The notes under the pieces: generated by a model
Database searches by the model: none
Told to the model about the DNA's origin: nothing
What the model saw: the letters and a program-made list of their open reading frames with translations, nothing else
DNA from: Hyphomicrobiales bacterium
GTDB taxonomy: Bacteria > Pseudomonadota > Alphaproteobacteria > Rhizobiales > RI-29
NCBI GenBank assembly: GCA_016125495.1
Contig: WGLQ01000002.1
Span: 26,969 to 90,968, forward strand
Direction: 5' to 3'
DNA length: 64,000 nucleotides
Shown here: positions 16,572-41,876 of the stretch, piece after piece
How the letters are laid out: each line of letters opens with the position of its first letter
How positions within the stretch are numbered: position 1 is the first letter of the stretch
Program-made: the position numbers and the translations under genes

Positions 16572-16856
16572 GGCCGAGGTCTCTCGTGCGCTGCTGCGTG
16601 AGGTCGAGCCCGCTCCGGGGTTCGACGCAAGGGAAGCACGCGACTGCCACCTCGCCAAGTCGTTTGCGCGTTCGCCACGGCACCGGAGCGCAGAAGTGAT
16701 CCGCAGCCGGGTGCAAATCCGGCCCTGGCAAATCCAATCACGGTGTCGTGAGGCCTTCGCCAGGCTGTGGGATCAGGATTGGAGCCACCATGACCGCGGA
16801 CTTGGCGCGGCGGGTGTGAACTGGCGGCGCGGGCATCACGACGGAAGGTTTGAGCG

Positions 16857-21154: not shown

Positions 21155-21278
21155 GGCTTGCCCGGCCGGATCGGAACGATCCCGCCGGGGCTGGCGCGGC
21201 GGCACGTCTGGTGGCAAGAACCGGGGCCCCGGGCGGCGGTCGTCGCGTCGTTCCTGCCGGGCGATCGCGGGAGGGCGA

Positions 21279-22076: not shown

Positions 22077-22459
22077 GGAGCGCGCGGCGGCGAGGCAGCG
22101 ACACCCGCGGCTTCGATGGTTGTTCCCGGCCCATGTCGATTGCAGTAAATTTTAATTAAATCAAATCGTTAGCGCCGGCCCGCGCCGGACGACCGAAGCG
22201 TTCCGTCCACGGTAAAAAAAGTGTTATGAAAAAATGCTTGAACCCGATGGTGGTTGATTCATAGTGGTTCGGAGGTTGCCGGACGATCGGTTGATGCCGG
22301 CCGTTCGCACGAATTGCCGGGCTCGAGCGATACGCTGGTCACTCGGGCGTAGCGACTATTTGATTTGGGTGATGCTGGTGTAGGCGGCAGCGTGGTGTCG
22401 CTCCGATCTCGAGGGGCAAGCCGAACCCCGAGGGCGTTCCGGCTGTGTGGGGGGCCGAA

Positions 22460-23692
22460 ATGGGTTCGCACGAGTCGTTGCGCCTTCTTATTTACAGCCA
22501 CGATTCCTTCGGGCTCGGGCACCTCCGGCGCTGCCGGGCGATCGCGCACTCGCTGGTCGAGCACAGGCGCGATCTGTCGGTGCTGATTCTCACGGGCTCG
22601 CCGATCATCGGCAGCTACAATTTCCGCTCGCGCGTCGACTTCGTGCGGTTCCCTGGCGTCGTCAAATTGCGCAACGGCGGCTACACGTCGCACGGCCTCG
22701 ACATCTCGATCGAGGCGGCCATCGCCATCCGCCAGACCATCATTCGGTGTTCCGCCGAGGAGTTCGACCCACATATCTTCCTCGTCGACAAGGAGCCGAT
22801 GGGACTGCGCGGGGAGGTGATGCCGACGCTGGCGCTGCTCAAGTCGCGCGGGGCGCGCCTCGTTCTCGGACTGCGTGACATTCTCGACGACCAGGAGATG
22901 CTGCGCGAGGAGTGGGAACGAAAAGGCTCCATGCAGGCGCTCAGGGACTATTACGACGATATCTGGGTCTACGGCTCGAAGCTCGTTGCCGATCCGCTCG
23001 AGGGAATCGATGTGCCGGACAGTGTGCGTCGGCGGATGACGTTCACGGGCTATCTGCGGCGTACCGCCAGCGGCATGGGCGAGGCACTCAACTTCGATGG
23101 CGTCGAGATCGAGGAACCCTACATCCTCGTCACGACCGGTGGCGGGGGCGATGGCACGGCGCTGGTCGACAGCGTGCTCAGGGCCTACGAACACGACCGG
23201 ACACTGCCGCATCGCGCGCTCGTCGTGATGGGCCCGTTCATGGATCGCGATGCGCAGGCGAATTTCCTTGCACGCATCGGGCGGCTCGAGATGGTTCAGG
23301 CCATCGATTTCGTCCCCAACATGGAGGACCTCATGATCCGTTCCATCGGCGTCGTGGCGATGGGCGGATACAACACGGTCTGCGAGATCCTTTCTTTCGA
23401 CAAGCCGGCCCTCATCGTGCCGCGCTCGGTGCCACGCCTCGAGCAGACGATACGGGCGGAGCGGATGCAGGATCTCGGTCTGCTCGGCATGCTGAGCGAA
23501 TACGATGCCTACGATCCCATGCTCATGGCGGCGCGAATTCGTCAGCTTCCCCATCAGCCACGCCCTTCGAGCGCGGGGCGGTCGGGCCTCCTCGATGGCT
23601 TTTCGATGATCCGCTCGATCGTCGATCGGTGGGCCGCGATGGGAGGCAACATGGGGCCACAACTGGCCGTCGTCAGCGGCTCTGCCGAGTGA
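22460..23692 (+). CDS. Glycosyltransferase family protein (GT-B, GT28-C-terminal-like; COG4671-type)
   Basis: N-terminal LLIYSHDSFGLGHLRRCRAIAHSL. Shares the GxGHLRR N-terminal motif and overall layout with the paralogue at 26166-27377. C-terminal half is GT-B like (VAMGGYNTVCEILSFDKPALIVP). Confidence 0.7.
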   Translation: MGSHESLRLLIYSHDSFGLGHLRRCRAIAHSLVEHRRDLSVLILTGSPIIGSYNFRSRVDFVRFPGVVKLRNGGYTSHGLDISIEAAIAIRQTIIRCSAEEFDPHIFLVDKEPMGLRGEVMPTLALLKSRGARLVLGLRDILDDQEMLREEWERKGSMQALRDYYDDIWVYGSKLVADPLEGIDVPDSVRRRMTFTGYLRRTASGMGEALNFDGVEIEEPYILVTTGGGGDGTALVDSVLRAYEHDRTLPHRALVVMGPFMDRDAQANFLARIGRLEMVQAIDFVPNMEDLMIRSIGVVAMGGYNTVCEILSFDKPALIVPRSVPRLEQTIRAERMQDLGLLGMLSEYDAYDPMLMAARIRQLPHQPRPSSAGRSGLLDGFSMIRSIVDRWAAMGGNMGPQLAVVSGSAE

Positions 23693-23701
23693 GGCCGCAA
23701 G

Positions 23702-25012
23702 GTGAGTCTCGCGATCGTCCTCAAGGGATATCCGAGGCTCTCGGAGACGTTCATCGCGCAAGAGCTCAAAGGGCTCGAGGATCGGGGGATCGACTTTTCG
23801 ATCCATGCCTTGCGCCGGCCGCACGACGGCAAGGTGCATCCGATCCACGGTGAAATCACCGCACCGGTTCATTATCTTCCGGAATACATTCATGACGAGC
23901 CGCTCCGGGTGCTGCGCGCCTGGCTCGCGGTGCGCCGGCGGCCGGGCTATCGCAGGGCCCGTGCCAAATGGCTCGCCGATCTGTGGCGGCAGCCGACGCG
24001 AAACCGGTTCCGGCGCTTCGGCCAGGCCATGGTGCTCGCGGCGGAGATGCCGGCGGATGTCCGCCACATCCATGTTCATTTTCTCCACACGCCTGCCTCG
24101 GTGGCGCGATACGCGGCGGACGCGCTCGGGATCGGATGGAGCTGTTCGGCCCATGCCAAGGACATCTACACGACGCCGGCTTGGGAAATCAGTGAGAAGC
24201 TCGACGATCTCGAATGGCTCGTGACGTGCACGGCGGCGAACGTCGGGCATCTGAAATCGCTCGCACCGGCGGCGGCGAACAAGATCGAACTCGTCTACCA
24301 CGGCATCGACCTGGCGCGCCTCGACGGGGAGGAAAACAGAGCCATGAATGACGATCGGGGCGGGCTGCGCGCAGGTCCCGAGGAAGCGGCGGAGACGAGG
24401 CGACCAAGGACCGTCGAAATCCTCTCGGTCGGCCGGGCGGTGCCGAAGAAGGGCTATGACGACCTCCTCGAAGCGCTGGCGCGGCTGCCGGCCGGGCTCG
24501 ACTGGCGGTTCACGCACATCGGAGGAGGAGATCTGCGCAAGCGGCTCGAGGCACGAGCGAGCGCGCTCGGGCTCGACGGGCGGATCACCTGGCGCGGGGC
24601 GCAGGCGCAAGCAGAGGTGCTGGAGGCTTATCGGCGCTCCGATATTTTCGTCCTGACGAGCCGGATCGCGGACGACGGCGATCGCGACGGGCTGCCCAAC
24701 GTGCTGATGGAGGCCCAGAGCCAGGGGGTTGCCTGCCTCTCGACCCGTGTCTCGGCGATCCCGGAGCTCATCGAGGATGGCGTCACCGGCAGGCTTGTCG
24801 ATCCCGGCGACGTCGAGGCGATCGCGGCGGCTCTCGGGGAACTCATCCGCGATGAGGACCAGAGGAAGCGACTGGCGGCCGCAGGCCACCGGCGGGTGCG
24901 CCGGGATTTCACGCACGAGGCCGGGATCGAACGGGTGGCGCGCAGGTTGCGGGCGCACATTTGCGATCGCGAAGGGGTGGAGTCCCGCGAGGTCGGGGCA
25001 GCGGTCGGGTGA
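23702..25012 (+). CDS. Glycosyltransferase family 4 (WcaL-like)
   Basis: MSLAIVLKGYPRLSETFIAQELKGLE N-terminus, and the C-terminal GT4 motif block FVLTSRIADDGDRDGLPNVLMEAQSQGVACLSTRVSAIPELIEDGVTGRLV. Confidence 0.8.
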   Translation: MSLAIVLKGYPRLSETFIAQELKGLEDRGIDFSIHALRRPHDGKVHPIHGEITAPVHYLPEYIHDEPLRVLRAWLAVRRRPGYRRARAKWLADLWRQPTRNRFRRFGQAMVLAAEMPADVRHIHVHFLHTPASVARYAADALGIGWSCSAHAKDIYTTPAWEISEKLDDLEWLVTCTAANVGHLKSLAPAAANKIELVYHGIDLARLDGEENRAMNDDRGGLRAGPEEAAETRRPRTVEILSVGRAVPKKGYDDLLEALARLPAGLDWRFTHIGGGDLRKRLEARASALGLDGRITWRGAQAQAEVLEAYRRSDIFVLTSRIADDGDRDGLPNVLMEAQSQGVACLSTRVSAIPELIEDGVTGRLVDPGDVEAIAAALGELIRDEDQRKRLAAAGHRRVRRDFTHEAGIERVARRLRAHICDREGVESREVGAAVG

Positions 25013-26169
25013 TGCGCATCGCCTTTCATGCCCCGCTCAAAGCTCCGGACTGGCCCGTTCCTTCGGGGGATCGGACGATCGCGAGGGCGATCGTTGCGAG
25101 CCTCCAGGCGGTGGGCCACGAGGTGATCGTGGCATGCCGACTGCGGACCTTCGATGGCAAGGGGGATCGCGCCCGGCAGGAGGCGTTGCGCGAGCGGGGT
25201 GAGCGGCTCGCGCGCGGCCTCGTGGAGCGGTATCGCGGACCGGGAGTTCGCCGGCCCGATCTCTGGCTGACCTATCACCTCTACCACAAGGCTCCCGATC
25301 ATGTCGGCCCCCTGGTCTGCCGGGAACTGGGGCTGCCCTACGTGGTGATCGAAGCGTCCCACTCGCCGCGCCAGAGCGAGGGGCCTTGGCGCGAGGGCAA
25401 TGGGCTGGTGGCGGCGGCCCTTCTGCAGGCGGCGCTCGTCGTTTCGCTCAATCGGCGGGACCCGCCCGCGATCGCGGCTTTGGGTGTCGATGCGGGACGC
25501 ATGCGGCTGCTGGCCGTGCCGGCGGATCTCAATGCGTTTGCACGGGCGGCCGACGAGCGGGCCCGGCATCGCGCCGTCATCGCCGCCCGCCACGGCCTCG
25601 CGGCAGAGGAACCCCGTCTGATCACCGCCGCCATGATGCGCGCCGGCGACAAGGTGGCATCGTACCAGCTGCTTGCCGAGGCGCTCGACCTGCTCGGGGA
25701 GCGGGCGTGGCGTCTCCTCGTTGCCGGGGACGGGGCCGCCCGAGGGGAAATGGAGGATATGTTCGTGCGGCACGGGCGCAGGGTGGTGTTCCTCGGCGCG
25801 CTCGGGCGCGAGGCACTGGCCGAATATCTTTCCGCGGCCGATCTCTTCGTATGGCCCGCCATCAACGAGGCGATCGGCATGGCGATCCTCGAGGCGCAGG
25901 CGGCCGGCCTCGCCGCCGTGGTCGGGGATGCGGGCGATGTGCGGTCTGTCTGCGAGGACGGCGTGACGGCGCGCGTGGTCCCGATTCGCGACGCCCGAGC
26001 ATTCGCGCGGGCGGTGCGTGACTATCTCGATGCACCGGGCGTATTGGTGGGAGACGGGGAGGCGGCCCGCGAGCGGGCGCTCAGGGTGCACTCCCTGGAG
26101 GCGGCCGGCCGGCAGCTCGATGGCTGGCTGCGGGAGGTCGTTCCGGACCGGCGGGGAGAGAAACGGTGA
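25012..26169 (+). CDS. Glycosyltransferase family 4
   Basis: ATG 25012 overlaps the upstream TGA (gTGATG). MRIAFHAPLKAPDWPVPSGDRTIARA..., with C-terminal FVWPAINEAIGMAILEAQAAGLAAVVGDAGDVRSVCEDGVTARVV. Confidence 0.75.
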   Translation: MRIAFHAPLKAPDWPVPSGDRTIARAIVASLQAVGHEVIVACRLRTFDGKGDRARQEALRERGERLARGLVERYRGPGVRRPDLWLTYHLYHKAPDHVGPLVCRELGLPYVVIEASHSPRQSEGPWREGNGLVAAALLQAALVVSLNRRDPPAIAALGVDAGRMRLLAVPADLNAFARAADERARHRAVIAARHGLAAEEPRLITAAMMRAGDKVASYQLLAEALDLLGERAWRLLVAGDGAARGEMEDMFVRHGRRVVFLGALGREALAEYLSAADLFVWPAINEAIGMAILEAQAAGLAAVVGDAGDVRSVCEDGVTARVVPIRDARAFARAVRDYLDAPGVLVGDGEAARERALRVHSLEAAGRQLDGWLREVVPDRRGEKR

Positions 26170-27377
26170 CGAACCGAATTCTCATCCATGTGCAGCACCT
26201 GCTCGGGGTCGGGCACCTGCGCCGGGCGGCGGCGCTCTCGCGGGCATTCGCCCGGAGTGGTTATGAAGTGGTCGTGCTTTCGGGTGGGCGGCTGGTTGCG
26301 GGAACGGATGTCGGGGGCGGGCGCCTCGTGCAACTCGCGCCGGCGCACGCGGCGGATGTGTCATTCAGCGCCGTGCTCGATGACGACGGCAAGCCGATCG
26401 ACGAGGCGTTCGAGAGACGACGGCGCGAGGTGGTGGTGGCCGAGACGCTACGGTTCGCGCCGGACGTGGTCGTCACGGAGCATTATCCGTTCGGGCGGCG
26501 GCGCTTTCGCGGCGAGATCACCGCGCTGTTCGATGCCGCGCCGCGCGGTGCCCTCGTGCTCTCCTCGGTGCGCGACGTCCTGGTGCGCAGCGCCGGGCAC
26601 GGCGAGAAGGCCGCGCGGATCGTCGATCTCATCAGGAAGCGTTACGATGGCGTTCTCGTGCATGGTGATCCCGGCATCATCGCGCTCACGGATTCGTTCC
26701 CGGCGGCCGATGGGATCGCCGATCGTCTCCATTACACCGGCTACGTGGTCGAGGAAGCGCCGGGGGAGGTTTTCCCGGCGGACACGCAAGGTGCTCACAC
26801 CGGCTGCAAGGGCCCTGGGGAGGTCGTCGTCTCGGTCGGTGGGGGAGCGGTCGGCCTCGGACTCCTCGGGGCCGCACTCGAGGCACGGCGCGGCGGCTTG
26901 CTGGACGACCGGCGATGGCGTCTCCTGGTCGGGCGGAACCTCGGCGGGGCGGCGTTCGCCCAATTGCGGGCATCGGCACCCGACGGGGTCGTCGTCGAGT
27001 GGGCGCGACCGGACTTCCGGGCGCTGCTCTCGCGGGCCTCGCTCTCGATCTCGCAGGCGGGCTACAATACGTTGATGGACATTCTGATCGCGGGCGTCCC
27101 GGCCGTGGTGGTGCCGTTCGAGGCGGGCGCCGAGAGCGAACAGCGCGAGCGTGCCGAGCTGTTCGCTCGTCGCGGGCTGCTTGCGGTGCTGCCCGAAAGC
27201 GAACTCGATGGCCGGCGGCTGGCGGTGGCGGCGCTCGAGGCGATCGTGCGGCTGGATCGCGTGTGCCTCTCGGAGCGGGTTGCCGCAATCCGGCTCGAAG
27301 GGGCCGACGAGAGCGTGCGGATCGTCACGCGACTGCTCGGGCGAAAGCGCCGGGGCGAAGCCATGGGAGACGGCTGA
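26166..27377 (+). CDS. Glycosyltransferase family protein (paralogue of 22460-23692)
   Basis: GTG 26166 overlaps the upstream TGA. ILIHVQHLLGVGHLRRAAALSRAF, with C-terminal SISQAGYNTLMDILIAGVPAVVVPF. Confidence 0.7.
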   Translation: MTNRILIHVQHLLGVGHLRRAAALSRAFARSGYEVVVLSGGRLVAGTDVGGGRLVQLAPAHAADVSFSAVLDDDGKPIDEAFERRRREVVVAETLRFAPDVVVTEHYPFGRRRFRGEITALFDAAPRGALVLSSVRDVLVRSAGHGEKAARIVDLIRKRYDGVLVHGDPGIIALTDSFPAADGIADRLHYTGYVVEEAPGEVFPADTQGAHTGCKGPGEVVVSVGGGAVGLGLLGAALEARRGGLLDDRRWRLLVGRNLGGAAFAQLRASAPDGVVVEWARPDFRALLSRASLSISQAGYNTLMDILIAGVPAVVVPFEAGAESEQRERAELFARRGLLAVLPESELDGRRLAVAALEAIVRLDRVCLSERVAAIRLEGADESVRIVTRLLGRKRRGEAMGDG

Positions 27378-28189
27378 TGGCGGCTTCGGGGACGAGCTGG
27401 GCCGATCTCGAACGGGAACTCGACCATTGGCGGCGGGCAGGGCGACGCGCCAGCCTCTGGTGGCGCGACGACGATGCACATCAGAGGAACGATGCATTCA
27501 TTCGGCTGGCGGCGCTAGCGGCGCAGCACCGGGTGGCGCTGATGTGCGCGGTCGTTCCGGTCTGGCTGGCGCGGTCGGATGGCGAACGGGGCACGGTTCC
27601 ACTCCGGCCGGAGCCGATGGTCACCTACGTTCAGCATGGTCTCGCCCACGTCAATCATGAGCCTCAAGGAACCAGAGGCGCGGAATTCGGGGGCTCGCGG
27701 AGCGAGGAGGCCCTGCGCGACGACCTGGTTGCGGGCGGCCGATTGATCGCCGACCGCTTGCAGGATGCGCTCGCTGTCTTCGTGCCACCTTGGAACCGGG
27801 CCGATGATCGCCTCGCGGGCGTGCTGGCGCGGGCGGACTATATCGGATTGTCGATGGCGGGCCCCCGGGCCGCGCCCGAGGCGGCGCCGGGCGTCAAGCT
27901 CGCCAACGTGCACGCCGACATCATCGACTGGCGCGCGGGCAGGGTGTTTCGTGGTGAGGGGCGGGTGCTGGGAACGGTCGTGGAGCACCTGGCGGCACGA
28001 CGCACCGGGGCGCTCGACGCGGAGGAGGCGACGGGCATCATGAGCCATCATCTGGCCCACGATGCAGGTTGCTGGGCATTCCTCGAGCGCTTTCTCGAAT
28101 TGACGGCGGGGCACGAGGCCGTAGTCTGGCGCTCGGCGCAGGACCTCTTCGGTGCTCGCAAGCTCGGGCAAACGGGAAGTGGGGCGTGA
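27377..28189 (+). CDS. Polysaccharide deacetylase-like protein
   Basis: ATG 27377 shares its A with the upstream [13 protein letters not shown]...ALMCAVVP...[12 protein letters not shown] pattern, recalled from NodB/DUF2334-like deacetylases. Confidence 0.55.
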
Positions 28190-30090
28190 TGCAACGGGCA
28201 ATGGCGAGCGAACTCCTCAAGGTCGAGAACCTCGCGGTGACCTTCGCGGGCCCTACCGGTGAGGTGCAGGCGGTGCGCGACGTCTCGTTCCGCGTGCGGC
28301 CCGGCTCGTGCGTGGCCATTGTCGGCGAGAGCGGTTCGGGCAAGAGCGTGACGGCGCGCGCGATCCTCGGCATCCTGCCAAGGTCGGCACGGATCGTCGG
28401 CGGGCGCATCCTGTTCGCCGACAAGGGCTATGCGACGGCGCGTGATCTCGCGGCCCTGGCACCGGACTCGGAGGCCTATCGGGCGGTGCGCGGCGGACGC
28501 ATCTCCATGATCTTCCAAGAGCCGATGACCTCGCTTTCACCGCTGCACACGGTCGGCAATCAGATCGCTGAGGCGCTCGAGCTGCATCAGGATCTGAAAT
28601 CCGGTGAGGTGGAGGCGCGGTGCCTCGAGATGCTGCGGCTGGTGCGCTTTCCCGATCCCGATCGGGCCTTCAGGAGCTACCCGTTCGAACTCTCGGGCGG
28701 CTTGCGCCAGCGGGCGATGATCGCGATGGCGCTCGTTTGCGGACCGGCTCTCCTCATCGCCGACGAGCCGACGACCGCGCTCGACGTCACGGTTCAGGCG
28801 CAAATACTCGGACTTATCAAAGATTTGCAGCGGGATCTCGGCATGGCGGTCCTGCTCATCACGCACGACATGGGCGTGGTGGCGAACATCGCCGAAGAGG
28901 TGGTCGTCGTCTACAAGGGCGAGGTCATGGAGGCCGGCACGATCGGCGACATCCTCGGCGACCCGCAGCACGATTATCTCAAGGCGCTGCTGCGGGCGGT
29001 GCCGCGCATCGAGGGGGGTGGCACGATGCGCCTCCAGCCCTTGAGGGAGATCAATCCCGAGATCGGCAAGATGCTCGGCGCGCGGACAGAGGCCGAGACA
29101 GCGGGCCAGCACGCGGGCGCCGGGCCGCTCCTCGAGGTGCGCGGGCTCGTCAAGCGCTATACGATCCGCAACGCTCGGCGCGGCCTGCTGCGCAACACCG
29201 ACGAGCAACACACGGCGGTCGATCGGGTCTCGTTCAGCATCGAGCGCGGGGAGTGCCTCGGCCTCGTCGGCGAGAGCGGCTGCGGCAAAACGACCGTCTC
29301 GAAGATGATCCTCGGTGGCATCAGTTCGGACGAAGGGGAGATCCTCTTTCGTGCCGAGGATGGCGGGCAAGTCGACATGGCGCGGCTCGACGATTCCGCC
29401 ATGCGGCCTTACCGCAAGCGCATCCAGTACGTGTTCCAGGATCCGTTCGGCTCGCTCAATCCGCGCATGACGACCTTCGACATCCTCAGCGAGCCGCTGC
29501 AGATCCATGGGATCGGCGACAAAGCGTGGCGGCGCGAGATGGTGCAGGAAGCCATGCGGCTGGTCGGGCTCGATCCGCGATACCTCAACCGCTACCCGCA
29601 CAGCTTTTCGGGCGGTCAGCGCCAGCGCATCGGCATCGCGCGGGCCTTGATGCTGCGGCCGGAACTGGTCATCTGCGACGAACCCGTGTCCGCCCTCGAT
29701 GTCTCGACGCAGGCGCAAGTCCTCAATCTTCTCAAGGATTTGCAGGAACGGCTTGCGCTCACCTTCTTGTTCATCTCGCACGACCTCGCGGTGGTCAATT
29801 ACATCGCGGACCGCATCGCGGTGATGAGCCGCGGCAAACTCGTGGAAGTCGGCCCGCGCGAGGCCATCTTCAATAGACCGCGCCATCCTTACACGCGAGC
29901 GCTGCTCGGATCGGTGCCGACGCCCGACCTCGGCCGTCTGCTCGATTTCGAAGCGATCAGGGATACCGGGCTGACCGAGCCGGAGAACTGGCCCTATCCG
30001 TTCGGCGGCGAGGGGGGCAGCCAGCCGAGCCTTCTCGATCTCGGCGGCGGGCACATGGTGCGTGCGTACGAGGCGACCGAGGCCTCATGA
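28189..30090 (+). CDS. Peptide/opine/nickel-type ABC transporter ATP-binding protein, fused double ATPase (YejF/DppDF-like)
   Basis: Two ABC cassettes: Walker A GESGSGKS and GESGCGKT, signatures LSGGLRQR and FSGGQRQR, Walker [13 protein letters not shown] and [15 protein letters not shown] 28189 overlaps the upstream TGA. Confidence 0.9.
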
Positions 30091-31475
30091 CGGGGCGCCG
30101 CCGATCCAGATGGGGCAAGTCGATGCCGAAATGGCGATCGTCAGCGGGCGCGACGGGGACAGCGGGCGGGCTTCTCGTCCTCTGCGCAGAGGAGCCAGCG
30201 GACGTGGCGCTGGATGCCATCGCCGAAACTTGCCTCGGCGCCGGTCTCGCCCCGCCTCGGATCGAATTGTCGACGTCGGCGAACAATGGCGTGGCGGAAG
30301 ACGGTGCTACCTGGATCGAGCGCGCGCTCGAGGTGGCCGAGGCGCGACCGTGGACGCTGCTGTGGTTGATCGGACCCGACGAGGAACCGGTCGCCGATAG
30401 CCTCGCGATCGTGCTGGGTCTTCTCGACGTGGCTGGTGCCGTGTTCGGTGGGTGCGCGCTGGACGATGGGTTGGGTGCGACACCAGGCCTCCAACAGGTT
30501 CCAAAGATTGCGCGCTATACGGGCCAGGGTCGCCTCGCGCTGACCCATGGCGCGCTCGAATGGTGGATCGGGCCATCGCACATCGTCACGCGCGACGCAT
30601 TCTCGCTCGCCCGGGCGAGGATGCGCGAATTCGGTGGCGGCGTTCCGGGTTACGCCGCCGCACTCTGGGAGGCAGGATCATCCTTGAAGATCGCCGCGCC
30701 GCTCACCCGGGCGACGACGGGCGCGTTGCCAGGATCGATTGTCGGTGACGGAGCCGGCCTTCGCTGCCACCTCGAGCGCTCGCACGATCTCTGGATCCCC
30801 GTTTCGGCGCATGGGCGGTCGTTCGAGATGGCCTACACGGGCCGCAACCCGGCGATCGAGCGCGTGCAAATGCGCGGCCTCTTCTTCGAGGCCGGTGAGC
30901 TCGATTGCGTGCGATCGTACCTTGCCGGTCGCCAGGGAGGGATTGCGGTCGATGTCGGGGCGAACACGGGCAACCACGCCATCTACTTGGGGACGTTGAC
31001 GAACCTCGAGCGGGTGGTGGCGCTGGAGCCGGTTCCGGCAACATGTCGCTGGTTGGAGAGCGTGGTGGCCCGCAACGGGGCGAACCGTGTCGACCTCTCG
31101 CGGCTCGGGATCGCGGTTGGCGGGGCGCCGGGCCATGCACGGGCGGACGCGGGGCGACGCGGCCACCTCGGCTCGACGAGGCTCCATGCGGATGGCTCGG
31201 GCAGCATCGAGGTGGCAAGGCTCGACGACCTCGGGTTCAACAACGTGGCACTCTTGAAGATCGACGTCGAAGGTGGCGAAATCGCCGTGATCGAAGGGGC
31301 GAAGGGGCTGCTCGCCGAGAATTCGCCACTCATCCTCGTCGAGGTGATGGACGACAATCTCGCGTCGTTCCTCGCGTTCATGTCTCAATTGCGCTATCGA
31401 GTTGCGCAAGCGTTTGCCGAGCCGGGATATATCAACCTGGTGCTCGAAAGGGAGGGGTCGAATGATCGTTCTTAG
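30087..31475 (+). CDS. FkbM-family methyltransferase with an uncharacterised ~230-aa N-terminal domain
   Basis: C-terminal half carries [15 protein letters not shown]...[15 protein letters not shown]...[22 protein letters not shown] (FkbM signature). ATG 30087 overlaps the ATPase stop (ATGA). The exact start is uncertain. Confidence 0.7.
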
Positions 31476-33432
31476 GGTGGCAGCTTCGGCGCGCGTCTCG
31501 CTCGAGCCGGCATTGCACGTCCGGTCATGGGTCGCGCGCGTTCGGATGCTCACAGTGGCGCTCGTGGTGCTGTCGGCATGTTTCGGGGCGACGAATTCGG
31601 CGGTGCGCGCCGGGGAACTGGTCGAACCACCCGCGCTGGCTGAAGAGGTCGCGGCCGGCAGATTGCCACCGCTCGCCGAGCGTTTGCCCGCACAGCCCAT
31701 GGTCATGAACGTTGCAGATGCCGGGCGGCATGGCGGCTCGCTTCGGATGCTCTTTGCGCGCGCCAAGGACATCCGCATCGTCACTGTCTACAGCTACGCC
31801 CGGCTGGTGCGTTACAATGAGGATCTGGAAATCGTGCCGGACATCGCCGAGGCGGTGGAGGTCGAGGAAGGGCGCTCGTTCACGATCCGCATCAGGGCCG
31901 GGCACAAGTGGTCCGACGGCCAACCCTTCACGAGCGAAGACTTCCGCTACTACTGGGAGGACATGGCAACGAATGCCGTCATCTCCCCGCTGGGGCCGGA
32001 GAGCATGCTGGTCGTGGACGGAAAACCGGCGACCTTCGAGGTGATCGACGAGCGCACGGTGCGCTATACGTGGGAGAAGCCGAACCCCTACTTCCTGCCG
32101 GCTCTCGCGGCGCCGCGGCCGCCGTTCATCTACCGGCCTGCCCACTACCTCCGGCAATTCCACGAACGCTATGCACCAGCGGACCGCCTCGCCGCGCTCG
32201 TTGCGGAACACTCGCAGCGCGATTGGCGGGCGCTGCACTACTTCATGGACAAGCCCTATACGGCCGACAACATCGCGTTTCCGAGCCTGCAACCGTGGGT
32301 CAATACGACGAACTCCCCCTCCGAGCGCTTCATCTTCAAGCGCAATCCCTATTTCCACCGGGTCGATCAGAACGGCAGGCAGTTGCCCTATCTCGACCAG
32401 CTCGTCGCGGGCATCACATCCGGTGATCTCATTCCGGCCAAGGTGGGCACGGGCGATGCGGACCTCCAGGCGCGGGGGCTCGAGTTCAAGAACTATACCT
32501 TCCTCAAGAACGGCGAGGATCGAAACGGTTACGATGTCCGCCTCTGGCGCACTGCCCAGGGCGCACGCGTCGCGCTGTTTCCCAACCTGCACGTGTCGGA
32601 CCCCGTGCAGCGGACACTGGCGCGCGATGTGCGGTTCCGCAGGGCGCTTTCACTGGCCATCGACAGGGGAGAGATCAACCAGACCCTGTTCTTCGGACTG
32701 GCGGAAGAATCGAACAACACCGTGATCCCGGACAGCCCGCTCTTCAAGGACGAATATCAGTCGAGTTGGGCGACCTACGACATCGACGAGGCCAATCGAC
32801 TGCTGGACGAAATCGGGCTGGTCCAGCGCGATGGGGAAGGTTATCGACTGATGTCGGACGGGCGCCGTCTGGAGATCATCGTGGAGACGGCAGGCGAGGA
32901 TCAGGAGCAGACGGACGTTCTGCAACTGGTCCGGGATACCTGGCGCAAGGCCGGAATCGCGCTCTTCATAAAGCCGTCGCGGCGCGAGGTGATGCGCGAT
33001 CATGCCAAGTCGGGCACGGCGTGGGTCACCATCTTCTATGGCATCGACAATGGACTGGCGGGCCCGGACACGGCGCCGATCGAATTCGTGCCGACGAGCG
33101 AGGACCAGCTGCAGTGGCCGCTCTGGGGGAGGTATTACGAGACCGCCGGCAAGAGCGGCGAGGCACCCGACATGCCGGAGGGCCAAAAGCTCGCAATGCT
33201 CCACGAGCGCTGGGCGAGTTCGCTCGACTCGGACGAGCGCGAGACCATCTGGCATGATATCCTTGCCACCCATGCCGAGAACGTCTTCACCATCGGGGTG
33301 GTCTGCCGGGTGCCGCAGCCTGTCGTCGTGAGCCGCAAGCTGCACAACGTGCCCGAAGATGGGATCTACAGCTGGGATCCAGGTGCCCACTTCGGTCTCT
33401 ACAGTCCCGATACGTTCTGGATGGACCAGTAG
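31462..33432 (+). CDS. ABC transporter substrate-binding protein, family 5 (peptide/opine/nickel type), large YejA-like form
   Basis: ATG 31462 lies after GGAGGGG and overlaps the upstream 3' end by 14 nt. Signal-like MLTVALVVLSACFGATNSAVRA, then RLPPLAERLPAQPMVMNV...GHKWSDGQPFTSEDFRYYWED, typical of family-5 SBPs. Alternative start at 31546. Confidence 0.8.
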   Translation: MIVLRVAASARVSLEPALHVRSWVARVRMLTVALVVLSACFGATNSAVRAGELVEPPALAEEVAAGRLPPLAERLPAQPMVMNVADAGRHGGSLRMLFARAKDIRIVTVYSYARLVRYNEDLEIVPDIAEAVEVEEGRSFTIRIRAGHKWSDGQPFTSEDFRYYWEDMATNAVISPLGPESMLVVDGKPATFEVIDERTVRYTWEKPNPYFLPALAAPRPPFIYRPAHYLRQFHERYAPADRLAALVAEHSQRDWRALHYFMDKPYTADNIAFPSLQPWVNTTNSPSERFIFKRNPYFHRVDQNGRQLPYLDQLVAGITSGDLIPAKVGTGDADLQARGLEFKNYTFLKNGEDRNGYDVRLWRTAQGARVALFPNLHVSDPVQRTLARDVRFRRALSLAIDRGEINQTLFFGLAEESNNTVIPDSPLFKDEYQSSWATYDIDEANRLLDEIGLVQRDGEGYRLMSDGRRLEIIVETAGEDQEQTDVLQLVRDTWRKAGIALFIKPSRREVMRDHAKSGTAWVTIFYGIDNGLAGPDTAPIEFVPTSEDQLQWPLWGRYYETAGKSGEAPDMPEGQKLAMLHERWASSLDSDERETIWHDILATHAENVFTIGVVCRVPQPVVVSRKLHNVPEDGIYSWDPGAHFGLYSPDTFWMDQ

Positions 33433-33524
33433 TCTGAGAAAGGCGCCCACCGTTCGGCGGGCGTCGGATCGGCGGCGGGCGCATCGCGTTCGCGAGCATG
33501 CAGTCAACGGAGGCGGCGGTCGGG

Positions 33525-34523
33525 ATGCTCGGATATCTGCTCCGCAGAACGGTGACGATGGCGGTGACCCTCTGGGTCATTTCGCTGCTCGTCTTCGTCA
33601 TTATCCAGCTCCCTCCGGGAGATTATCTCACCAGCCACCTCGACGAACTCAAGGCCCAAGGCGAGGCGGTCGATCCCAGGAAGATCGCCTTCCTCAGGGA
33701 GCAATACGGCCTCGACAAGCCGCTCTGGCAGCAATACCTGACCTGGGCGACGGGCCTCTTGCGGGGCGATCTAGGCTACAGCTTCGAATACAATCTGCCG
33801 GTCACAGAGGTCGTCGGGGACCGCTTGTGGCTCTCGATGCTGCTGAATTTCGCGACGGTGCTCTTCATCTACGTCGTTTCCTTCCCGATCGGTTTCTACT
33901 CCGCGACGCACCAGTACAGCTGGAGCGACTACGGGATCACTTTCCTCGGCCTCCTCGGGCTCGCGACGCCCAACTTCCTGCTCGCCCTGATCCTCCTCTA
34001 TCTGGCCAATTCCTGGTTCGGAATCTCGATCGGTGGCCTGATGGACCCCAAGTACATCGACCAACCCTGGACCTGGGGCAAGGCATTGTCGGTGCTCGAG
34101 CATCTGGCGGTGCCAGTGATCGTGATCGGAACCTCGGGCACGGCCGGCATGATCCGTCGGCTGCGGGCGAACCTGCTCGATGAACTGCAGAAGCAATATG
34201 TCGAGACGGGGCGGGCCAAGGGGCTGCCGGAGGGACGGCTGCTCAGGAAGTATCCGCTGCGCATGTCGCTCAACCCGTTCATCGCCGATATCGGGAGCCT
34301 GCTGCCGCAGATCGTCTCGGGCTCGGTGATCGTCTCGGCGGTGATGTCGTTGCCGACGACGGGGCCGATGCTGCTGCAGGCCTTGCAGAGCCAGGACATG
34401 TATCTCGCCGGTTCCTTCCTCATGTTCCTCGCACTGCTGACCGTGGTCGGAATGTTCGTCTCCGATGTCCTGCTCGCCGTTCTCGATCCGCGCATTCGGC
34501 TCGAGGGAGGGGTGCGGCGGTGA
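33525..34523 (+). CDS. ABC transporter permease (DppB/OppB/YejB-like)
   Basis: MLGYLLRRTVTMAVTLWVISLLVFVIIQL N-terminus and ETGRAKGLPEGRLLRKYPLR loop. GGAGG at 33509-33513. The track ORF begins at 33498 (alternative start). Confidence 0.85.
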   Translation: MLGYLLRRTVTMAVTLWVISLLVFVIIQLPPGDYLTSHLDELKAQGEAVDPRKIAFLREQYGLDKPLWQQYLTWATGLLRGDLGYSFEYNLPVTEVVGDRLWLSMLLNFATVLFIYVVSFPIGFYSATHQYSWSDYGITFLGLLGLATPNFLLALILLYLANSWFGISIGGLMDPKYIDQPWTWGKALSVLEHLAVPVIVIGTSGTAGMIRRLRANLLDELQKQYVETGRAKGLPEGRLLRKYPLRMSLNPFIADIGSLLPQIVSGSVIVSAVMSLPTTGPMLLQALQSQDMYLAGSFLMFLALLTVVGMFVSDVLLAVLDPRIRLEGGVRR

Positions 34524-35698
34524 AGGAGAGGAACAACGAAGGTCTCGAACCGCTCGCGCACTACGTTTCGCCGCGCCCCTTCGTGGTCGATGACGACGAG
34601 CGCCTGACGCCCGAGCAGGAGCGCTATTTCCTCGCCTCGCAATGGACGATGATGTGGTGGCGGTTCAAGCGCCACAAGGTCGCGCTGTGGTGCGGCATCA
34701 TCCTGCTGTTCGCCTATCTCTCAATTCTCATCACCGAAGTGCTGGCGCCCTATGCGCTGGAGACGCGTAACTCGCGCTTCATCTATGCGCCGCCGCAGTC
34801 GGTGCATCTCTTCCACGAGGGTTCCTTCGTCGGACCATTCGTCTATCCGCTGTCGTTCAAGCTCAACATGCAGACGCTGCAGCGCGAGTATTCCGTCGAC
34901 ACGCGGAAGCCGCAGCCGCTGCGCTTCTTTTGCGAAGGGGACCGATACCGATTCTGGGGGCTGGTCGAATCGCGCTTTCATCTCGTGTGCCCGCCGAAGG
35001 GGGGAACGCTCTTCATTGCCGGCACCGACAAGCTCGGGCGCGACGTGTTCAGCCGCCTCCTCTATGGCGCGCGCATTTCGCTCACCGTCGGGCTGGTCGG
35101 GATCGCCATCAGCTTCGTGCTCGGCATGACGCTCGGCGGTATCGCGGGTTATTTCGGTGGCTGGATCGACAATGTCATCCAGCGCGTCATCGAGATCCTG
35201 CGGTCGCTGCCGGAACTGCCGCTCTGGCTGGCGCTCTCGGCCGCCCTGCCGGTCACATGGAGCCCGATTCTCGTCTATTTCGGCATCACCGTGATCCTCG
35301 GGTTGCTGGACTGGCCGGGCCTCGCGCGGGCAGTTCGCTCCAAGCTGCTTTCGTTGCGCGAGGAGGATTTCGCAGTCGCATCGCGGCTCATGGGCGCGCG
35401 TCCACGCCACATCATCGCGCGCCACCTGCTGCCCAACTTCATGAGCCACCTCATCGCTTCGGCGACGCTTTCGATCCCTTCCATGATCCTCGGAGAGACG
35501 GCGCTCTCCTATCTCGGGCTCGGTCTGCGCCCGCCGATCACGAGCTGGGGTGTCATGCTCTCGGAAGCGCAGAACATCGAAGCCGTGGTGCTCTATCCCT
35601 GGCTGATGCTGCCGATGTTGCCGGTGGTGATCGTCGTTCTCGCCTTCAACTTTCTCGGCGATGGCCTGCGCGATGCGGCTGATCCCTACAGGAGCTGA
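34520..35698 (+). CDS. ABC transporter permease (DppC/OppC/YejE-like, with N-terminal extension)
   Basis: GTG 34520 overlaps the upstream TGA. WWRFKRHKVALWCGIILLF, GTDKLGRDVFSRLLYGARISL and ASRLMGARPRHIIARHLLPN are typical of this family. Confidence 0.85.
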   Translation: MKERNNEGLEPLAHYVSPRPFVVDDDERLTPEQERYFLASQWTMMWWRFKRHKVALWCGIILLFAYLSILITEVLAPYALETRNSRFIYAPPQSVHLFHEGSFVGPFVYPLSFKLNMQTLQREYSVDTRKPQPLRFFCEGDRYRFWGLVESRFHLVCPPKGGTLFIAGTDKLGRDVFSRLLYGARISLTVGLVGIAISFVLGMTLGGIAGYFGGWIDNVIQRVIEILRSLPELPLWLALSAALPVTWSPILVYFGITVILGLLDWPGLARAVRSKLLSLREEDFAVASRLMGARPRHIIARHLLPNFMSHLIASATLSIPSMILGETALSYLGLGLRPPITSWGVMLSEAQNIEAVVLYPWLMLPMLPVVIVVLAFNFLGDGLRDAADPYRS

Positions 35699-35703
35699 AA
35701 CCG

Positions 35704-36204
35704 GTGTCCAGGCTCGACAGCTTCATCCGCCGCATGATGGCGCAGCGCGATCTCATCAACGAAGCGGCCGCCATGATCGCCGAGGTACCCGGCGTCGTCT
35801 TCGAACTCGGCCTCGGCAACGGGCGCACTTTCGATCATCTGCGCGAACGGCTCCCGGGGCGCGAGATTTTCGTCTTCGACCGACGCGTCGCGGCGCATCC
35901 CTCCTCGGTGCCGGATGCAGGACACATGATCCTCGGAGAGGTCGGAGAAACGCTGCCGGCCGCGGTTGCCCGCCATCGGGGACGAGTGGCGATGGTGCAC
36001 AACGATCTCGGCGACGGTACGCCTGAGAACACGGCCGCGATCCGCACGATGCTCGAGGGGGCGCTCGCCCCAGCCCTCGCGCCGGGAGCGCTGGTTCTTT
36101 CGAATGCGCCGCTCATCATCGAGGGCACGCGCGAGCTGGCGCTGCCCGAGGGTATTGCGACGGGGCGTTATTTCCTCTACCGGCGGCAAGACGCGCGGGG
36201 TTGA
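35704..36204 (+). CDS. Small class I SAM-dependent methyltransferase-like protein (166 aa)
   Basis: GTG 35704 lies 9 nt after GGAG. VVFELGLGNGRTFDHLRERLPGREIFVFDR resembles a Rossmann SAM-binding G-x-G-x-G segment. Family recalled from alphaproteobacterial annotations. Confidence 0.55.
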   Translation: MSRLDSFIRRMMAQRDLINEAAAMIAEVPGVVFELGLGNGRTFDHLRERLPGREIFVFDRRVAAHPSSVPDAGHMILGEVGETLPAAVARHRGRVAMVHNDLGDGTPENTAAIRTMLEGALAPALAPGALVLSNAPLIIEGTRELALPEGIATGRYFLYRRQDARG

Positions 36205-36334
36205 TCCGGGGCGCGATCGCCGCCACGCAGGGGCTGCGCAATTGCCAAGCGGTCGCCGTTACGCCATGATCGTCCAGCGCGATCGGAGCGATGGCAAGGC
36301 CGCACGTCCGGTTGCATCTCCCGGAGGCGCCCAG

Positions 36335-37669
36335 ATGTCGTCGTCACCTTTTTCCATCGCCAAGCCCAAGATCGACCCGTCCCGTCGCCCTCAGGGCGGC
36401 ATGCGGCCGGACAACACACCCGACGACAACGACCGAGTGGAGATAGGGCCGACGCCATTGGCATTCGCGGAGTGGGAGGCGGCGGGGCTCGCGTGTCCCG
36501 ACCTGCCGGCCATGCGCGCGTTCCGGCTGAAGCGGCTGGTGGATGCCATCATAGCGCGCGATCTCGCAGGGCTGTTGATGTACGATCCGCTCAGCATCCG
36601 TTATGCGACCGACACGACGGACATGCAACTCTGGGCGGCGCACAATCCGTTCCGCGCCTGTCTCGTGCTCGCCGACGGGCACATGGTGCTCTGGGAATAC
36701 GCCGGGCTCAAGTATCTATCGGAATACAATCCTCTCGTCTCGGAGGTGCGGGGCGGCGGCTCGTTCTTCTATTTCGCGACCGGTGACCGAACGGAGGAGA
36801 AGGCAGCGCGCTTTGCCGGACAGGTCGACGAGCTCATGCGGACCCATGCTGGCACCAACCGGCGGCTCGCGGTCGACAAGATCCAGATCGCCGGTCTTCG
36901 GGCCCTCGAGCGGCTCGGCATCGAGGTCCACGATGGTGAGGAGGTGACGGAGCGCACGCGTGCGATCAAGGGGCCGGACGAAATCAAAGCGATGCGCTGC
37001 GCCATGTGGGCCTGCGAGCAGTCGGTGGCGGCCATGCGGATCGCGGCGCAACCGGGCGTTACGGAAAACGACGTTTGGGCGGAGTTGCACAAGGAGAACA
37101 TCAGACGGGGAGGGGAATGGATCGAGACCCGCATTCTGGCGTCAGGGCCGCGGACCAACCCGTGGTTCCAGGAATGCGGGCCGCGGGTGATCCAAAACAA
37201 CGAGATCCTGAGCTTCGATACCGATCTCATCGGGTGCTACGGGATGTGCGCGGACATCTCGAGGTCGTGGTTCATCGGCGACGGTCAACCGACGAACGAG
37301 CAGCGCCGCCTGCACGCGGTCGCCCATGAACACATCATGACGAACATGCAACTCTTGAGGCCCGGAGTGAGCTTCCGGGAACTGGCCTTTTCCGGCCACG
37401 CCCTGCCCGAGGAGTTCGTGCCGCAGCGCTACGGATCGAAATACCACGGCGTCGGGCTCTGCGACGAGTGGCCGGCGATCAAGTATCCGATGGACTACGA
37501 GGAACGCGGCTACGACGGCGTGTTGGAGCCCGGCATGATGCTTTGCGTCGAGGCCTATGTCGGCGCCGTCGGTGGCAAGGAGGGGATCAAGCTGGAGGAT
37601 CAGGTTCTCATCACCGAGACCGGCTATGAGAACCTGACGCGCTGTCCGTTCGACGAGAAGCTGATCTGA
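36335..37669 (+). CDS. dddP: DddP-like M24-family metalloenzyme (dimethylsulfoniopropionate lyase DddP family; substrate unverified)
   Basis: KIDPSRR...DNDRVEIGPTPLAFAEWEAAGL...DPLSIRYATDTTDMQLW...GGEWIETRILASGPRTNPWFQECGPRV...HGVGLCDEWP...IKLEDQVLITETGYENLT closely follows my recollection of DddP sequences (creatinase/prolidase fold). ATG 36335 after CCGGAGG; alternative start at 36266. Confidence 0.6.
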   Translation: MSSSPFSIAKPKIDPSRRPQGGMRPDNTPDDNDRVEIGPTPLAFAEWEAAGLACPDLPAMRAFRLKRLVDAIIARDLAGLLMYDPLSIRYATDTTDMQLWAAHNPFRACLVLADGHMVLWEYAGLKYLSEYNPLVSEVRGGGSFFYFATGDRTEEKAARFAGQVDELMRTHAGTNRRLAVDKIQIAGLRALERLGIEVHDGEEVTERTRAIKGPDEIKAMRCAMWACEQSVAAMRIAAQPGVTENDVWAELHKENIRRGGEWIETRILASGPRTNPWFQECGPRVIQNNEILSFDTDLIGCYGMCADISRSWFIGDGQPTNEQRRLHAVAHEHIMTNMQLLRPGVSFRELAFSGHALPEEFVPQRYGSKYHGVGLCDEWPAIKYPMDYEERGYDGVLEPGMMLCVEAYVGAVGGKEGIKLEDQVLITETGYENLTRCPFDEKLI

Positions 37670-37741
37670 AGTCCTCGACCGGTCGGGGAACGGCCCGGTC
37701 ACCCCGCAGGCACGGAAAAGCGCCGGCGATGGCGCCGCTTG

Positions 37742-38527: not shown

Positions 38528-38554
38528 CGGCGGCTCCTTGAGGCTCGGGATTGG

Positions 38555-41833: not shown

Positions 41834-41876
41834 CGGTCGGACCCTCCTGGCGCACCCGGTCGCGGGCAAATGGAAA

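Follow-up and report, generated by a model that had tools for sequence, protein, structure and literature searches.

A conserved proteobacterial cluster of glycan-assembly and ATP-binding cassette importer genes, present in reduced form in a Hyphomicrobiales bacterium

The genome of a Hyphomicrobiales bacterium contains a stretch of 64,000 nucleotides (contig WGLQ01000002.1 of assembly GCA_016125495.1, positions 26,969 to 90,968 of the forward strand; hereafter the window) in which twelve plus-strand genes, numbered g1 to g12, follow one another from 22460 to 37669. The first eleven (22460-36204) form one operon-like unit that joins four glycosyltransferases and a probable deacetylase to an ATP-binding cassette (ABC) importer with its own substrate-binding protein (SBP). 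As gene content and protein similarity indicate, this unit represents a widely conserved proteobacterial cluster in locally reduced form; its counterpart in Sinorhizobium meliloti is SMb21252-SMb21271. The cluster is present in hundreds of species, including S. meliloti, Rhizobium leguminosarum, Azospirillum, and many marine bacteria, and in S. meliloti it ranks among the strongest determinants of tolerance to the peptide antibiotic phazolicin. The linkage between glycan enzymes and importer is genuine and functionally meaningful. With moderate confidence, it is proposed that the cluster assembles a partly de-N-acetylated, methylated envelope glycan in the cytoplasm and that the importer recaptures an oligosaccharide.

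Organization of the gene chain

The window has a G+C content of about 67%, and the third-position GC of 0.78-0.85 in all twelve plus-strand frames identifies them as coding. The products of g1 to g5 comprise 410, 436, 385, 403, and 270 amino acids, and the same lengths were obtained by an independent gene caller in the public assembly of the same DNA. The operon-like unit and the region preceding it consist of the following features:

22077..22459, plus strand: non-coding stretch of 383 nucleotides before g1, locally AT-rich and the sole long non-coding stretch preceding the chain; likely the promoter region of the chain
22460..23692, plus strand: g1, COG4671-type GT-B glycosyltransferase (Glyco_tran_28_C, 27.2 bits against a cutoff of 22)
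23702..25012, plus strand: g2, GT4 glycosyltransferase (Glycos_transf_1, E = 1e-34)
25012..26169, plus strand: g3, second GT4 glycosyltransferase (Glyco_trans_1_4, E = 3e-24)
26166..27377, plus strand: g4, second COG4671-type glycosyltransferase (Glyco_tran_28_C, E = 2e-12)
27377..28189, plus strand: g5, probable divergent deacetylase of the carbohydrate esterase family 4 (CE4, NodB) fold (fold of an AlphaFold model and conserved motifs)
28189..30090, plus strand: g6, fused double ATPase of an Opp/Dpp-type ABC importer (two ABC_tran and two oligo_HPY domains; GsiA-like, 608 bits)
30087..31475, plus strand: g7, FkbM-family methyltransferase inside the importer operon (FkbM domain at residues 289-438)
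31462..33432, plus strand: g8, periplasmic SBP of family 5 (SBP_bac_5, E = 4e-55)
33525..34523, plus strand: g9, OppB-like permease (BPD_transp_1 and BPD_transp_1_N)
34520..35698, plus strand: g10, OppC-like permease (OppC_N and BPD_transp_1)
35704..36204, plus strand: g11, small S-adenosylmethionine (SAM)-dependent methyltransferase (Methyltransf_17, PF12692, E = 8e-57, full length)

Most neighbouring frames overlap or nearly abut. The overlap is 1 nucleotide at g2/g3 (TGA at 25010-25012, ATG at 25012), g4/g5 (TGA at 27375-27377, ATG at 27377), and g5/g6 (TGA at 28187-28189, ATG at 28189); 4 nucleotides at g3/g4 (GTG at 26166, TGA at 26167-26169), g6/g7 (ATG at 30087, TGA at 30088-30090), and g9/g10 (GTG at 34520, TGA at 34521-34523); and 14 nucleotides at g7/g8 (31462-31475, from the ATG of g8 at 31462 to the end of g7 at 31475). 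Gaps of 9 nucleotides (23693-23701) and 5 nucleotides (35699-35703) separate g1 from g2 and g10 from g11, respectively, and the only sizeable gaps within the chain lie at 33433-33524 (92 nucleotides) and 36205-36334 (130 nucleotides). An earlier sequence-only reading had described twelve co-directional genes with these junctions, and every junction and frame is confirmed.

Internal promoters and terminators that would split the glycosyltransferase block from the ABC block are not in evidence. In a scan of 21000-39000 with E. coli-type consensus patterns, which carry little weight for an alphaproteobacterium of 67% GC, three promoter-like sites were detected where 1.8 are expected and seven terminator-like sites where 8.3 are expected, that is, no excess over chance. 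In the same scan the two large gaps are free of promoter- and terminator-like sites, except for a weak promoter-like one preceding dddP (g12), and RNA folding z-scores for 33425-33530, 36195-36340, and the 3' end of dddP range from -0.3 to +0.6. A GC-rich hairpin without a U-tract is located at 33442-33465 (plus strand), right after the stop codon of g8; the whole 92-nucleotide gap has a z-score of -0.29 and is thus no more stably folded than its shuffled versions. The region upstream of g1 (22077..22459) gave no match to the sigma-70 consensus, and cNMP regulator boxes were likewise not found in it: the Clr box HGTYHCNNNNGRWACA occurs nowhere in the window (0 matches), and of the 3 CRP boxes detected when 2 mismatches are allowed (11 expected), none precedes g1. 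Stop and start codons commonly overlap within operons; it is conservation in other genomes that gives the linkage its meaning.

Conservation across genomes

One genome per GTDB species was scanned with an alignment of g5, yielding 594 confirmed relatives; the best 80 loci were taken with 10-kb flanks and compared with the window proteins by tblastn, and co-location was counted on the 46 of them that are flanked by at least 8 kb on each side (the well-flanked loci). At least two of the four glycosyltransferases occur within 10 kb in 43 of these 46, at least two importer parts in 38, and glycosyltransferases and importer together in 37, distributed over Alpha-, Beta-, and Gammaproteobacteria as well as other phyla. 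The coupling of glycosyltransferases, deacetylase, and SBP-dependent importer put forward in the sequence-only reading, whose conservation in other genomes was the check proposed for it, is thus upheld across many gene orders. Among all 80 loci, the permeases g9 and g10 are the best-conserved genes of the cluster (median identity 71% and 70%, respectively), the deacetylase has a median of 41%, and relatives of g1 are found in 54 loci at a median of 57%.

Gene order varies widely, with about 30 distinct order strings among the 46 well-flanked loci. In the commonest alphaproteobacterial arrangement, one strand carries Methyltransf_17, a cyclic nucleoside monophosphate (cNMP)-binding protein, and an ABC exporter, while the other carries GT28a, GT4a, GT4b, a histidine phosphatase, GT28b, the deacetylase, a 163-residue membrane protein, the ABC ATPase, the SBP, and two permeases (GT28a, GT4a, GT4b, and GT28b being the counterparts of g1 to g4). 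The gammaproteobacterial version (Motiliproteus, Marinobacterium) consists of three divergent blocks, and in Azospirillum thermophilum the transporters come first. Glycan enzymes and importer still stand together in the rearranged versions of A. thermophilum, S. meliloti, and Motiliproteus. The reduced order of the window, with Methyltransf_17 after the permeases, is shared by two Hyphomicrobiaceae-type loci (L010 and L036), and a third (L066) has the exporter.

Near-complete copies are also present in metagenome-assembled genomes (MAGs) labelled Terriglobia, Verrucomicrobiia, Flavobacteriales, and Methylomirabilota (L063, L073, L043, and L035, respectively), with identities like those of proteobacterial copies, which points to horizontal transfer or mis-binned contigs. 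A mini-module on a plasmid of Rhizobium ruizarguesonis (NZ_CP071680.1, 100650-105276; L085) consists of a GT4b-deacetylase pair and, oriented divergently from it, genes for an adenylate/guanylate cyclase and an FkbM methyltransferase; a COG4671 glycosyltransferase homologue (H52) lies about 37 kb away on that plasmid.

The counterpart in Sinorhizobium meliloti

SMb21252-SMb21271 was proposed from transposon sequencing (Tn-seq) as a "phazolicin-protecting polysaccharide" (PPP) cluster (Travin et al. 2023, PMC10128002), so that the layout of the window, for which the sequence-only reading could name no described system, does have a described orthologue. The Tn-seq list used here is a portion of its Data Set S1 (the Data Set S1 portion), and S. 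meliloti gene identities were assigned by coordinate match to it. The region at 822-845 kb of pSymB holds counterparts of g1-g6 and g8-g10 with 35-66% identity (tblastn/blastp). g1 matches SMb21264 (listed there as redA; pSymB 837144-838358), also named RedA by a cluster look-up, with 50.5% identity over 99% of its length; g2 matches SMb21265 (redB; 838365-839612) with 54%; g3 matches SMb21252 (822580-823677) with 38% over 98% of its length; g4 matches SMb21266 (839609-840796) with 36% over the full length; and g5 matches SMb21253 with 35%, the five glycan enzymes being aligned over 93-99% of their lengths. Identities for the importer are 56% for the ATPase g6, 50% for the SBP, and 64 and 66% for the permeases. 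Data Set S1 annotates SMb21252 as a COG0438 glycosyltransferase, SMb21264 and SMb21266 as COG4671, SMb21265 as GT4, and SMb21269 (842345-844435) as an ABC exporter (PMC10128002).

Both clusters thus contain two COG4671 and two GT4 glycosyltransferases, a CE4-like deacetylase, and an Opp-type importer with a fused ATPase, and an FkbM-family methyltransferase lies beside the S. meliloti cluster as g7 lies in the chain of the window. The S. meliloti copy, however, is split and reordered: the importer precedes GT28a-GT4a-GT28b, the GT4b-deacetylase pair is 6 kb away, and a polysaccharide lyase that scores in the screen is directly upstream of the importer. It also includes an MsbA-like exporter, a cNMP-binding protein, a cyclase, a nucleotide-sugar dehydrogenase, the lyase, a metallo-beta-lactamase (MBL)-fold hydrolase, and a DUF3095 protein, all without a homologue in the window, and it has a different small methyltransferase where the window has Methyltransf_17. 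The MBL-fold hydrolase, which adjoins SMb21253, is encoded at L087:1273-2103 and recurs beside the cluster in 13 related loci, L083:17578-18462 among them (both on the minus strand). Three other S. meliloti candidates were rejected, namely the msbA2 operon SMb21188-21191, which sits at a different locus (938 kb); the Clr-regulated sulfated-polysaccharide cluster nodP2-SMb21248, which is a neighbouring yet different locus; and CyaK (SMb20776), which is unrelated.

Nine genes of the S. meliloti cluster score in the phazolicin screen: four glycosyltransferases, the deacetylase, the nucleotide-sugar dehydrogenase, the polysaccharide lyase, the exporter, and the FkbM-type gene (PMC10128002). Depletion is among the strongest (log2 of about -4 to -5) for the glycosyltransferases, the deacetylase, the exporter, and the FkbM gene, and independent mutants in smb21252 and smb21265 show an 8-fold increase in phazolicin sensitivity. 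Also scoring in this screen are the adenylate cyclase gene cyaA and a gene for a cyclic-nucleotide phosphodiesterase. The only SMb2126x tags in the Data Set S1 portion are 21264, 21265, 21266, and 21269, and the four importer genes have no entry there. The paper further cites screens that associate Agrobacterium tumefaciens orthologues with pyocyanin sensitivity and cluster genes with symbiosis (PMC10128002), and a transcriptome study recorded induction of seven of the nine genes under predation by Myxococcus.

The kind of cluster is accordingly known, with a product that is still uncharacterised, and the role of the importer is not addressed in the portions of the S. meliloti literature covered. 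Relative to that literature, the present comparison adds that the importer is a core and highly conserved part of the cluster, that the exporter with its cNMP-binding partner and the histidine phosphatase are also core, and that reduced versions such as that of the window exist.

Glycosyltransferases

The COG4671-type enzymes g1 and g4 share the GxGHLRR motif, which reads GLGHLRR in g1 (residue 18) and GVGHLRR in g4 (residue 14). They had been described as paralogues on this basis; the motif is present in both, but the proteins are only remotely alike, with 35% identity across 65 residues (E = 6e-7), indicative of a distant relationship. No solved relative of g1 was found in the PDB, where the best profile matches are marginal ones to GT1/MurG C-terminal domains (E = 0.1-0.5, best 0.11), and no papers were found under the name COG4671. 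The best solved relatives of g2 are PimB', BshA, and MshA at about 40-50 bits, with PimA also among them. Both g2 and g3 show family-level matches to MshA/BshA and weak ones to N-acetylglucosamine (GlcNAc)-phosphatidylglycerol synthase, far below curated cutoffs. Neither a predicted signal peptide nor a convincing membrane anchor was detected in g1 to g4.

A distant homologue of g1 (28% identity; H70) is encoded on a plasmid of Streptomyces sp. ADI95-16 (NZ_CP033582.1, 44036-45073) and overlaps annotations of both a glycosyltransferase and the polysaccharide deacetylase family. The pairing of glycosyltransferase and deacetylase may therefore be older than the proteobacterial cluster.

Deacetylase

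g5 is a divergent and probably cytoplasmic deacetylase of the CE4 fold, as judged from a structural model. The label "deacetylase" had been applied to it from sequence and receives no backing from family models, since g5 has no Pfam or NCBIfam match, including none to Polysacc_deac_1 (PF01522), yet the modelled fold and the conserved DD and HxxxH motifs speak for it. Among 31 relatives, three reach Polysacc_deac_1 at E = 0.011 or weaker and eight match DUF2334 (best E = 7.5e-5), while searches of the PDB with g5 gave no sequence match and only noise at the profile level. A hypothetical protein from a MAG designated "Rhizobiales bacterium" has the same sequence (100% identity). A search found 303 relatives, and hundreds at about 45% identity are annotated as polysaccharide deacetylase in their source.

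The alignment of 31 members displays an invariant W-R-D-D-D (residues 28-33, with D31, D32, and D33) together with H87 and H91 (HxxxH); D31-D33 and H87/H91 were equated with CE4 motifs 1 and 2 by eye, without superposition. The AlphaFold model built from this alignment has a mean predicted local distance difference test (pLDDT) score of 95.1 and a predicted template modelling (pTM) score of 0.91, and its best Foldseek matches are CE4 enzymes, namely PgdA, ArnD, chitin deacetylases, and acetylxylan esterases (E = 1e-7 to 1e-4, TM scores 0.45-0.57). No signal peptide or membrane span was seen in g5.

Importer

The importer belongs to the peptide/opine/nickel (PepT) family, as evidenced by its SBP_bac_5 protein, OppB/OppC-type permeases, and oligo_HPY ATPases. 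g8 has an N-terminal hydrophobic segment at residues 23-48. Its top solved relative is 5IPW at 298 bits, which was set aside from the ligand ranking; the nearest solved relatives with a known ligand are the pectin-binding SPH1118 of Sphingomonas sp. A1 (227 bits) and then 6EPY, an alpha-galactoside binder of S. meliloti (123 bits), whereas peptide binders and chitin-oligosaccharide binders score at most 50 bits. The SBP of the S. meliloti cluster gives the same ranking of solved relatives. Because the nearest relatives of known ligand bind sugars, the ligand of g8 is probably an oligosaccharide rather than a peptide, as far as family-level similarity can tell. The designation "peptide/opine class" in the sequence-only reading applies to the transporter family but probably not to the ligand.

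Exporter and associated genes of related loci

An MsbA-like ABC exporter is encoded in 33 of the 46 well-flanked loci and a cNMP-binding protein in 30, and most relatives carry the histidine phosphatase. The view that the glycan enzymes are coupled to an importer instead of an exporter consequently does not hold for the cluster in general; the window merely lacks an exporter. A tblastn search of the 64-kb window with the exporter retrieved only the nucleotide-binding domain of g6 (E = 4.5e-4). In this organism, the product may stay intracellular or leave via an exporter encoded elsewhere.

The best family match of the cluster exporter is MsbA (191 bits), and glucan exporter models score 142 and 97 bits. 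The exporter comprises about 880 residues (e.g., L083:1797-4463, minus strand) and contains an insert of about 270 residues within its nucleotide-binding domain that has no Pfam match. The cNMP-binding protein, of 150 residues, nearly always follows it and shows a below-cutoff match to TIGR03896, "bacteriocin-type transport-associated".

Methyltransferases

g7 is placed between the ATPase and SBP genes with codon overlaps on both sides, and its first 285 residues have no Pfam match. Only three related loci (L001, L013, and L016) have the same insertion. Homologues of g11 are more frequent, occurring in 30 of the 80 related loci, either after the permeases (L010, L036, and L017) or divergently beside the exporter.

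Proposed function and alternatives

In the proposed pathway, the two COG4671 and two GT4 glycosyltransferases would use nucleotide sugars to build a glycan in the cytoplasm, the CE4-fold protein g5 would strip an N-acetyl group off an amino sugar in this glycan, and the Methyltransf_17 and FkbM enzymes would methylate it. In most relatives, the MsbA-like exporter paired with the small cNMP-binding protein would then carry the product across the inner membrane, and in loci that have it the histidine phosphatase hints at a phosphorylated acceptor. The SBP-dependent importer would retrieve an oligosaccharide form or breakdown fragments from the periplasm, acting as a recycling arm and not as a supplier of precursors. 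Gene content, junctions, the CE4 fold, the conserved linkage, and the match to the S. meliloti cluster are shown directly; product chemistry, the direction and purpose of uptake, and any cNMP control in this bacterium are inferred. Recapture is favoured because the importer is co-expressed with synthesis and appears, from the Data Set S1 portion, to be dispensable for phazolicin tolerance, and because a scoring lyase lies directly upstream of it in S. meliloti.

Several observations weigh against this interpretation. The exporter, the histidine phosphatase, and the 163-residue membrane protein have no counterpart in the 64-kb window. The nucleotide-sugar dehydrogenase and the lyase of S. meliloti are likewise without a counterpart there, so that the products of the two clusters may differ. 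g7 and the S. meliloti FkbM protein SMb21271 have their family in common without a BLAST match between them. The recapture role draws on family-level similarity of the SBP and on the absence of the importer genes from the Tn-seq Data Set S1 portion. As to the type of product, "polysaccharide" is a provisional label of the authors who proposed it (PMC10128002), the product has been isolated from no organism, and a 2026 preprint still lists SM_b21220-SM_b21274 as an uncharacterised exopolysaccharide cluster. Moreover, Wzx/Wzy, ABC-2, GT2 synthase, outer-membrane polysaccharide export (OPX)/polysaccharide co-polymerase (PCP), and priming-transferase domains were found neither in the twelve chain proteins nor in the two related loci with precomputed gene tables. 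Given the lack of a polymerase, chain-length regulator, ABC-2 exporter, and priming transferase in these proteins and loci, a long polysaccharide is not assumed, and an oligosaccharide or glycolipid is equally open as the product.

A more specific form of the proposal, put forward tentatively, is a secrete-and-retrieve cycle in which a small, partly de-N-acetylated, methylated amino-oligosaccharide, as opposed to a polymer, is made in the cytoplasm, moved out by the cNMP-controlled MsbA-like exporter, and brought back in by its own high-affinity importer. If true, this would be a kind of periplasmic or extracellular glycan not recognised before, serving protection, osmotic balance, or signalling in hundreds of proteobacterial species.

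Alternatively, although this is considered unlikely, the product could be a membrane glycolipid, made by a GT4 enzyme that puts GlcNAc on a lipid, followed by de-N-acetylation, addition of more sugars, and translocation by the MsbA-like flippase, with the importer recovering released head groups. Such a logic would resemble that of glycosylphosphatidylinositol (GPI), phosphatidylinositol mannosides (PIM), and glucosaminyl-phosphatidylglycerol, and the combination of a GT4 enzyme with a deacetylase is typical of the GPI, mycothiol, and bacillithiol pathways. The phosphatidylinositol mannosyltransferases PimA and PimB' among the best solved relatives of g2, the weak resemblance of g2 and g3 to GlcNAc-phosphatidylglycerol synthase, the closeness of the exporter to MsbA, and the lack of polymerase and chain-length genes in the chain proteins and the related loci with gene tables would all fit. 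These similarities, however, are family-level and far below curated cutoffs, no glycosyltransferase has a convincing membrane anchor, and there is no lipid evidence from any organism.

An imported aglycone was suggested in the sequence-only reading. On this view, the transporter would bring in an aglycone or primer (such as a peptide, an opine, or a plant oligosaccharide) for decoration by the four glycosyltransferases. The importer is indeed co-transcribed and strictly co-conserved with the glycosyltransferases, belongs to the PepT family, and is accompanied in the window by no exporter, in keeping with an intracellular product. Nevertheless, an essential precursor importer should score in the phazolicin screen as the S. 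meliloti glycosyltransferase, deacetylase, and exporter mutants do, and its genes do not stand with the glycosyltransferases in the Data Set S1 portion. In addition, an exporter is paired with the glycosyltransferases in most relatives, and the SBP relatives of known ligand bind sugars and not peptides or opines. The idea of an imported precursor is thereby weakened and now appears rather improbable.

A catabolic or salvage system is much less plausible. In such a system, the GT-B enzymes would act in reverse as phosphorylases on an imported oligosaccharide and the deacetylase on imported N-acetylated sugars. Uptake of chitobiose-type sugars by Opp-family transporters in combination with deacetylases is a known pattern, the SBP falls in a sugar-binding branch, and an exporter is missing from the window. 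However, neither the chain nor the canonical related clusters with gene tables contain a glycoside hydrolase, sugar kinase, or isomerase, most relatives encode an exporter, methyltransferases are unexpected in catabolism, and the S. meliloti mutants exhibit an envelope-barrier phenotype and not a growth-substrate one.

That importer and glycan genes are merely packed together here is highly improbable: stop/start overlaps and co-direction are common in compact high-GC genomes, and the plus-strand run from 16854 to 37669 takes in unrelated genes such as DddP, but the pairing occurs in 37 of the 46 well-flanked loci and persists through rearrangements, DddP, the upstream phosphodiesterase, and the iron-sulfur (FeS) flavoprotein by contrast occur in 0 of 80, and identities of 35-70% among related loci argue against one recently transferred island.

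Comparison with known systems

Cyclic beta-1,2-glucan synthesis by NdvB/NdvA (ChvB/ChvA) likewise moves a cytoplasmic glycan through an MsbA-type ABC exporter into the periplasm, and the exporter of the related loci matches glucan exporter models. NdvB, however, is one giant synthase as opposed to four separate GT-B enzymes, and the NdvB/NdvA system has no deacetylase, methyltransferases, or linked importer, while the window has no exporter.

The cluster also recalls the logic of Nod factor synthesis by NodC, NodB, NodS, and NodIJ, in which a cytoplasmic glycosyltransferase, a CE4 de-N-acetylase, a SAM-dependent methyltransferase, and ABC export act in turn, and the predicted fold of g5 is that of NodB (CE4). 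Unlike the Nod pathway, the cluster contains neither a GT2 chitin-oligosaccharide synthase nor an acyltransferase, its exporter is of a different class, and Nod factor has no dedicated importer.

Retrieval by an SBP-dependent ABC importer of sugar released outside the cytoplasm has parallels in the mycobacterial trehalose transporter LpqY-SugABC and in the pectin/alginate uptake of Sphingomonas sp. A1 (SPH1118), although these importers are not fused into a biosynthetic operon and the identity between g8 and SPH1118 is modest. The succession of a GT4 enzyme and a de-N-acetylase resembles MshA/MshB, BshA/BshB, and PIG-A/PIG-L, and a phosphatase is present in most related clusters. g5, in contrast, is predicted to have the CE4 fold and not that of LmbE/PIG-L, and the cluster has no cysteine ligase and four glycosyltransferases instead of one.

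The comparison narrows the problem to which molecule the importer takes back and why so many bacteria keep the making and the uptake of one glycan within a single operon. Two handles on the product are offered by the SBP as a ligand bait and by importer mutants as accumulators of the exported form.

Neighbouring genes

The genes flanking the operon-like unit on the same strand are as follows:

16854-17381, plus strand: stand-alone cNMP-binding open reading frame, 5 kb upstream (28% identity to the cNMP-binding partner of the cluster)
17396-21154, plus strand: 1252-residue protein with about 8 membrane spans and Fer2 and Pyr_redox_2 domains (FeS flavoprotein)
21081..22076, plus strand: cyclic-nucleotide phosphodiesterase-like gene upstream of the chain (SpdA-like, 204 bits, below the 400-bit cutoff; CpdA-like, 85 bits)
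36335..37669, plus strand: g12, dimethylsulfoniopropionate (DMSP) lyase DddP/Peptidase_M24 (NF043017, 699.8 bits against a cutoff of 600, full length)

For the phosphodiesterase-like gene, the independent gene caller picks a later start, giving 265 residues. In most alphaproteobacterial loci, and also in S. meliloti, R. ruizarguesonis, and Motiliproteus, genes for cyclases and cNMP-binding proteins adjoin the cluster, and it is on account of these that the upstream phosphodiesterase could possibly be linked to it through cNMP control. Neither the phosphodiesterase nor the stand-alone cNMP-binding frame, however, is a conserved or orthologous member of the cluster. The phosphodiesterase-like gene, the large FeS flavoprotein, and DddP are absent from all 80 related loci.

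g12 had been counted as a DddP-like member of the chain. It is a genuine DddP, but its membership does not stand, given this absence and its position behind the largest gap, and it is probably a separate DMSP/acrylate-related neighbour unrelated to the glycan cluster. The 130-nucleotide gap before it carries the sole plus-strand promoter-like site of the scan (36242-36270, E. coli-type consensus). On its other side, g12 converges on genes for an enoyl-CoA hydratase, an ADP-forming acyl-CoA synthetase, and an acyl-CoA dehydrogenase (37742-41953, minus strand), with which it may constitute a small DMSP/acrylate catabolic island.

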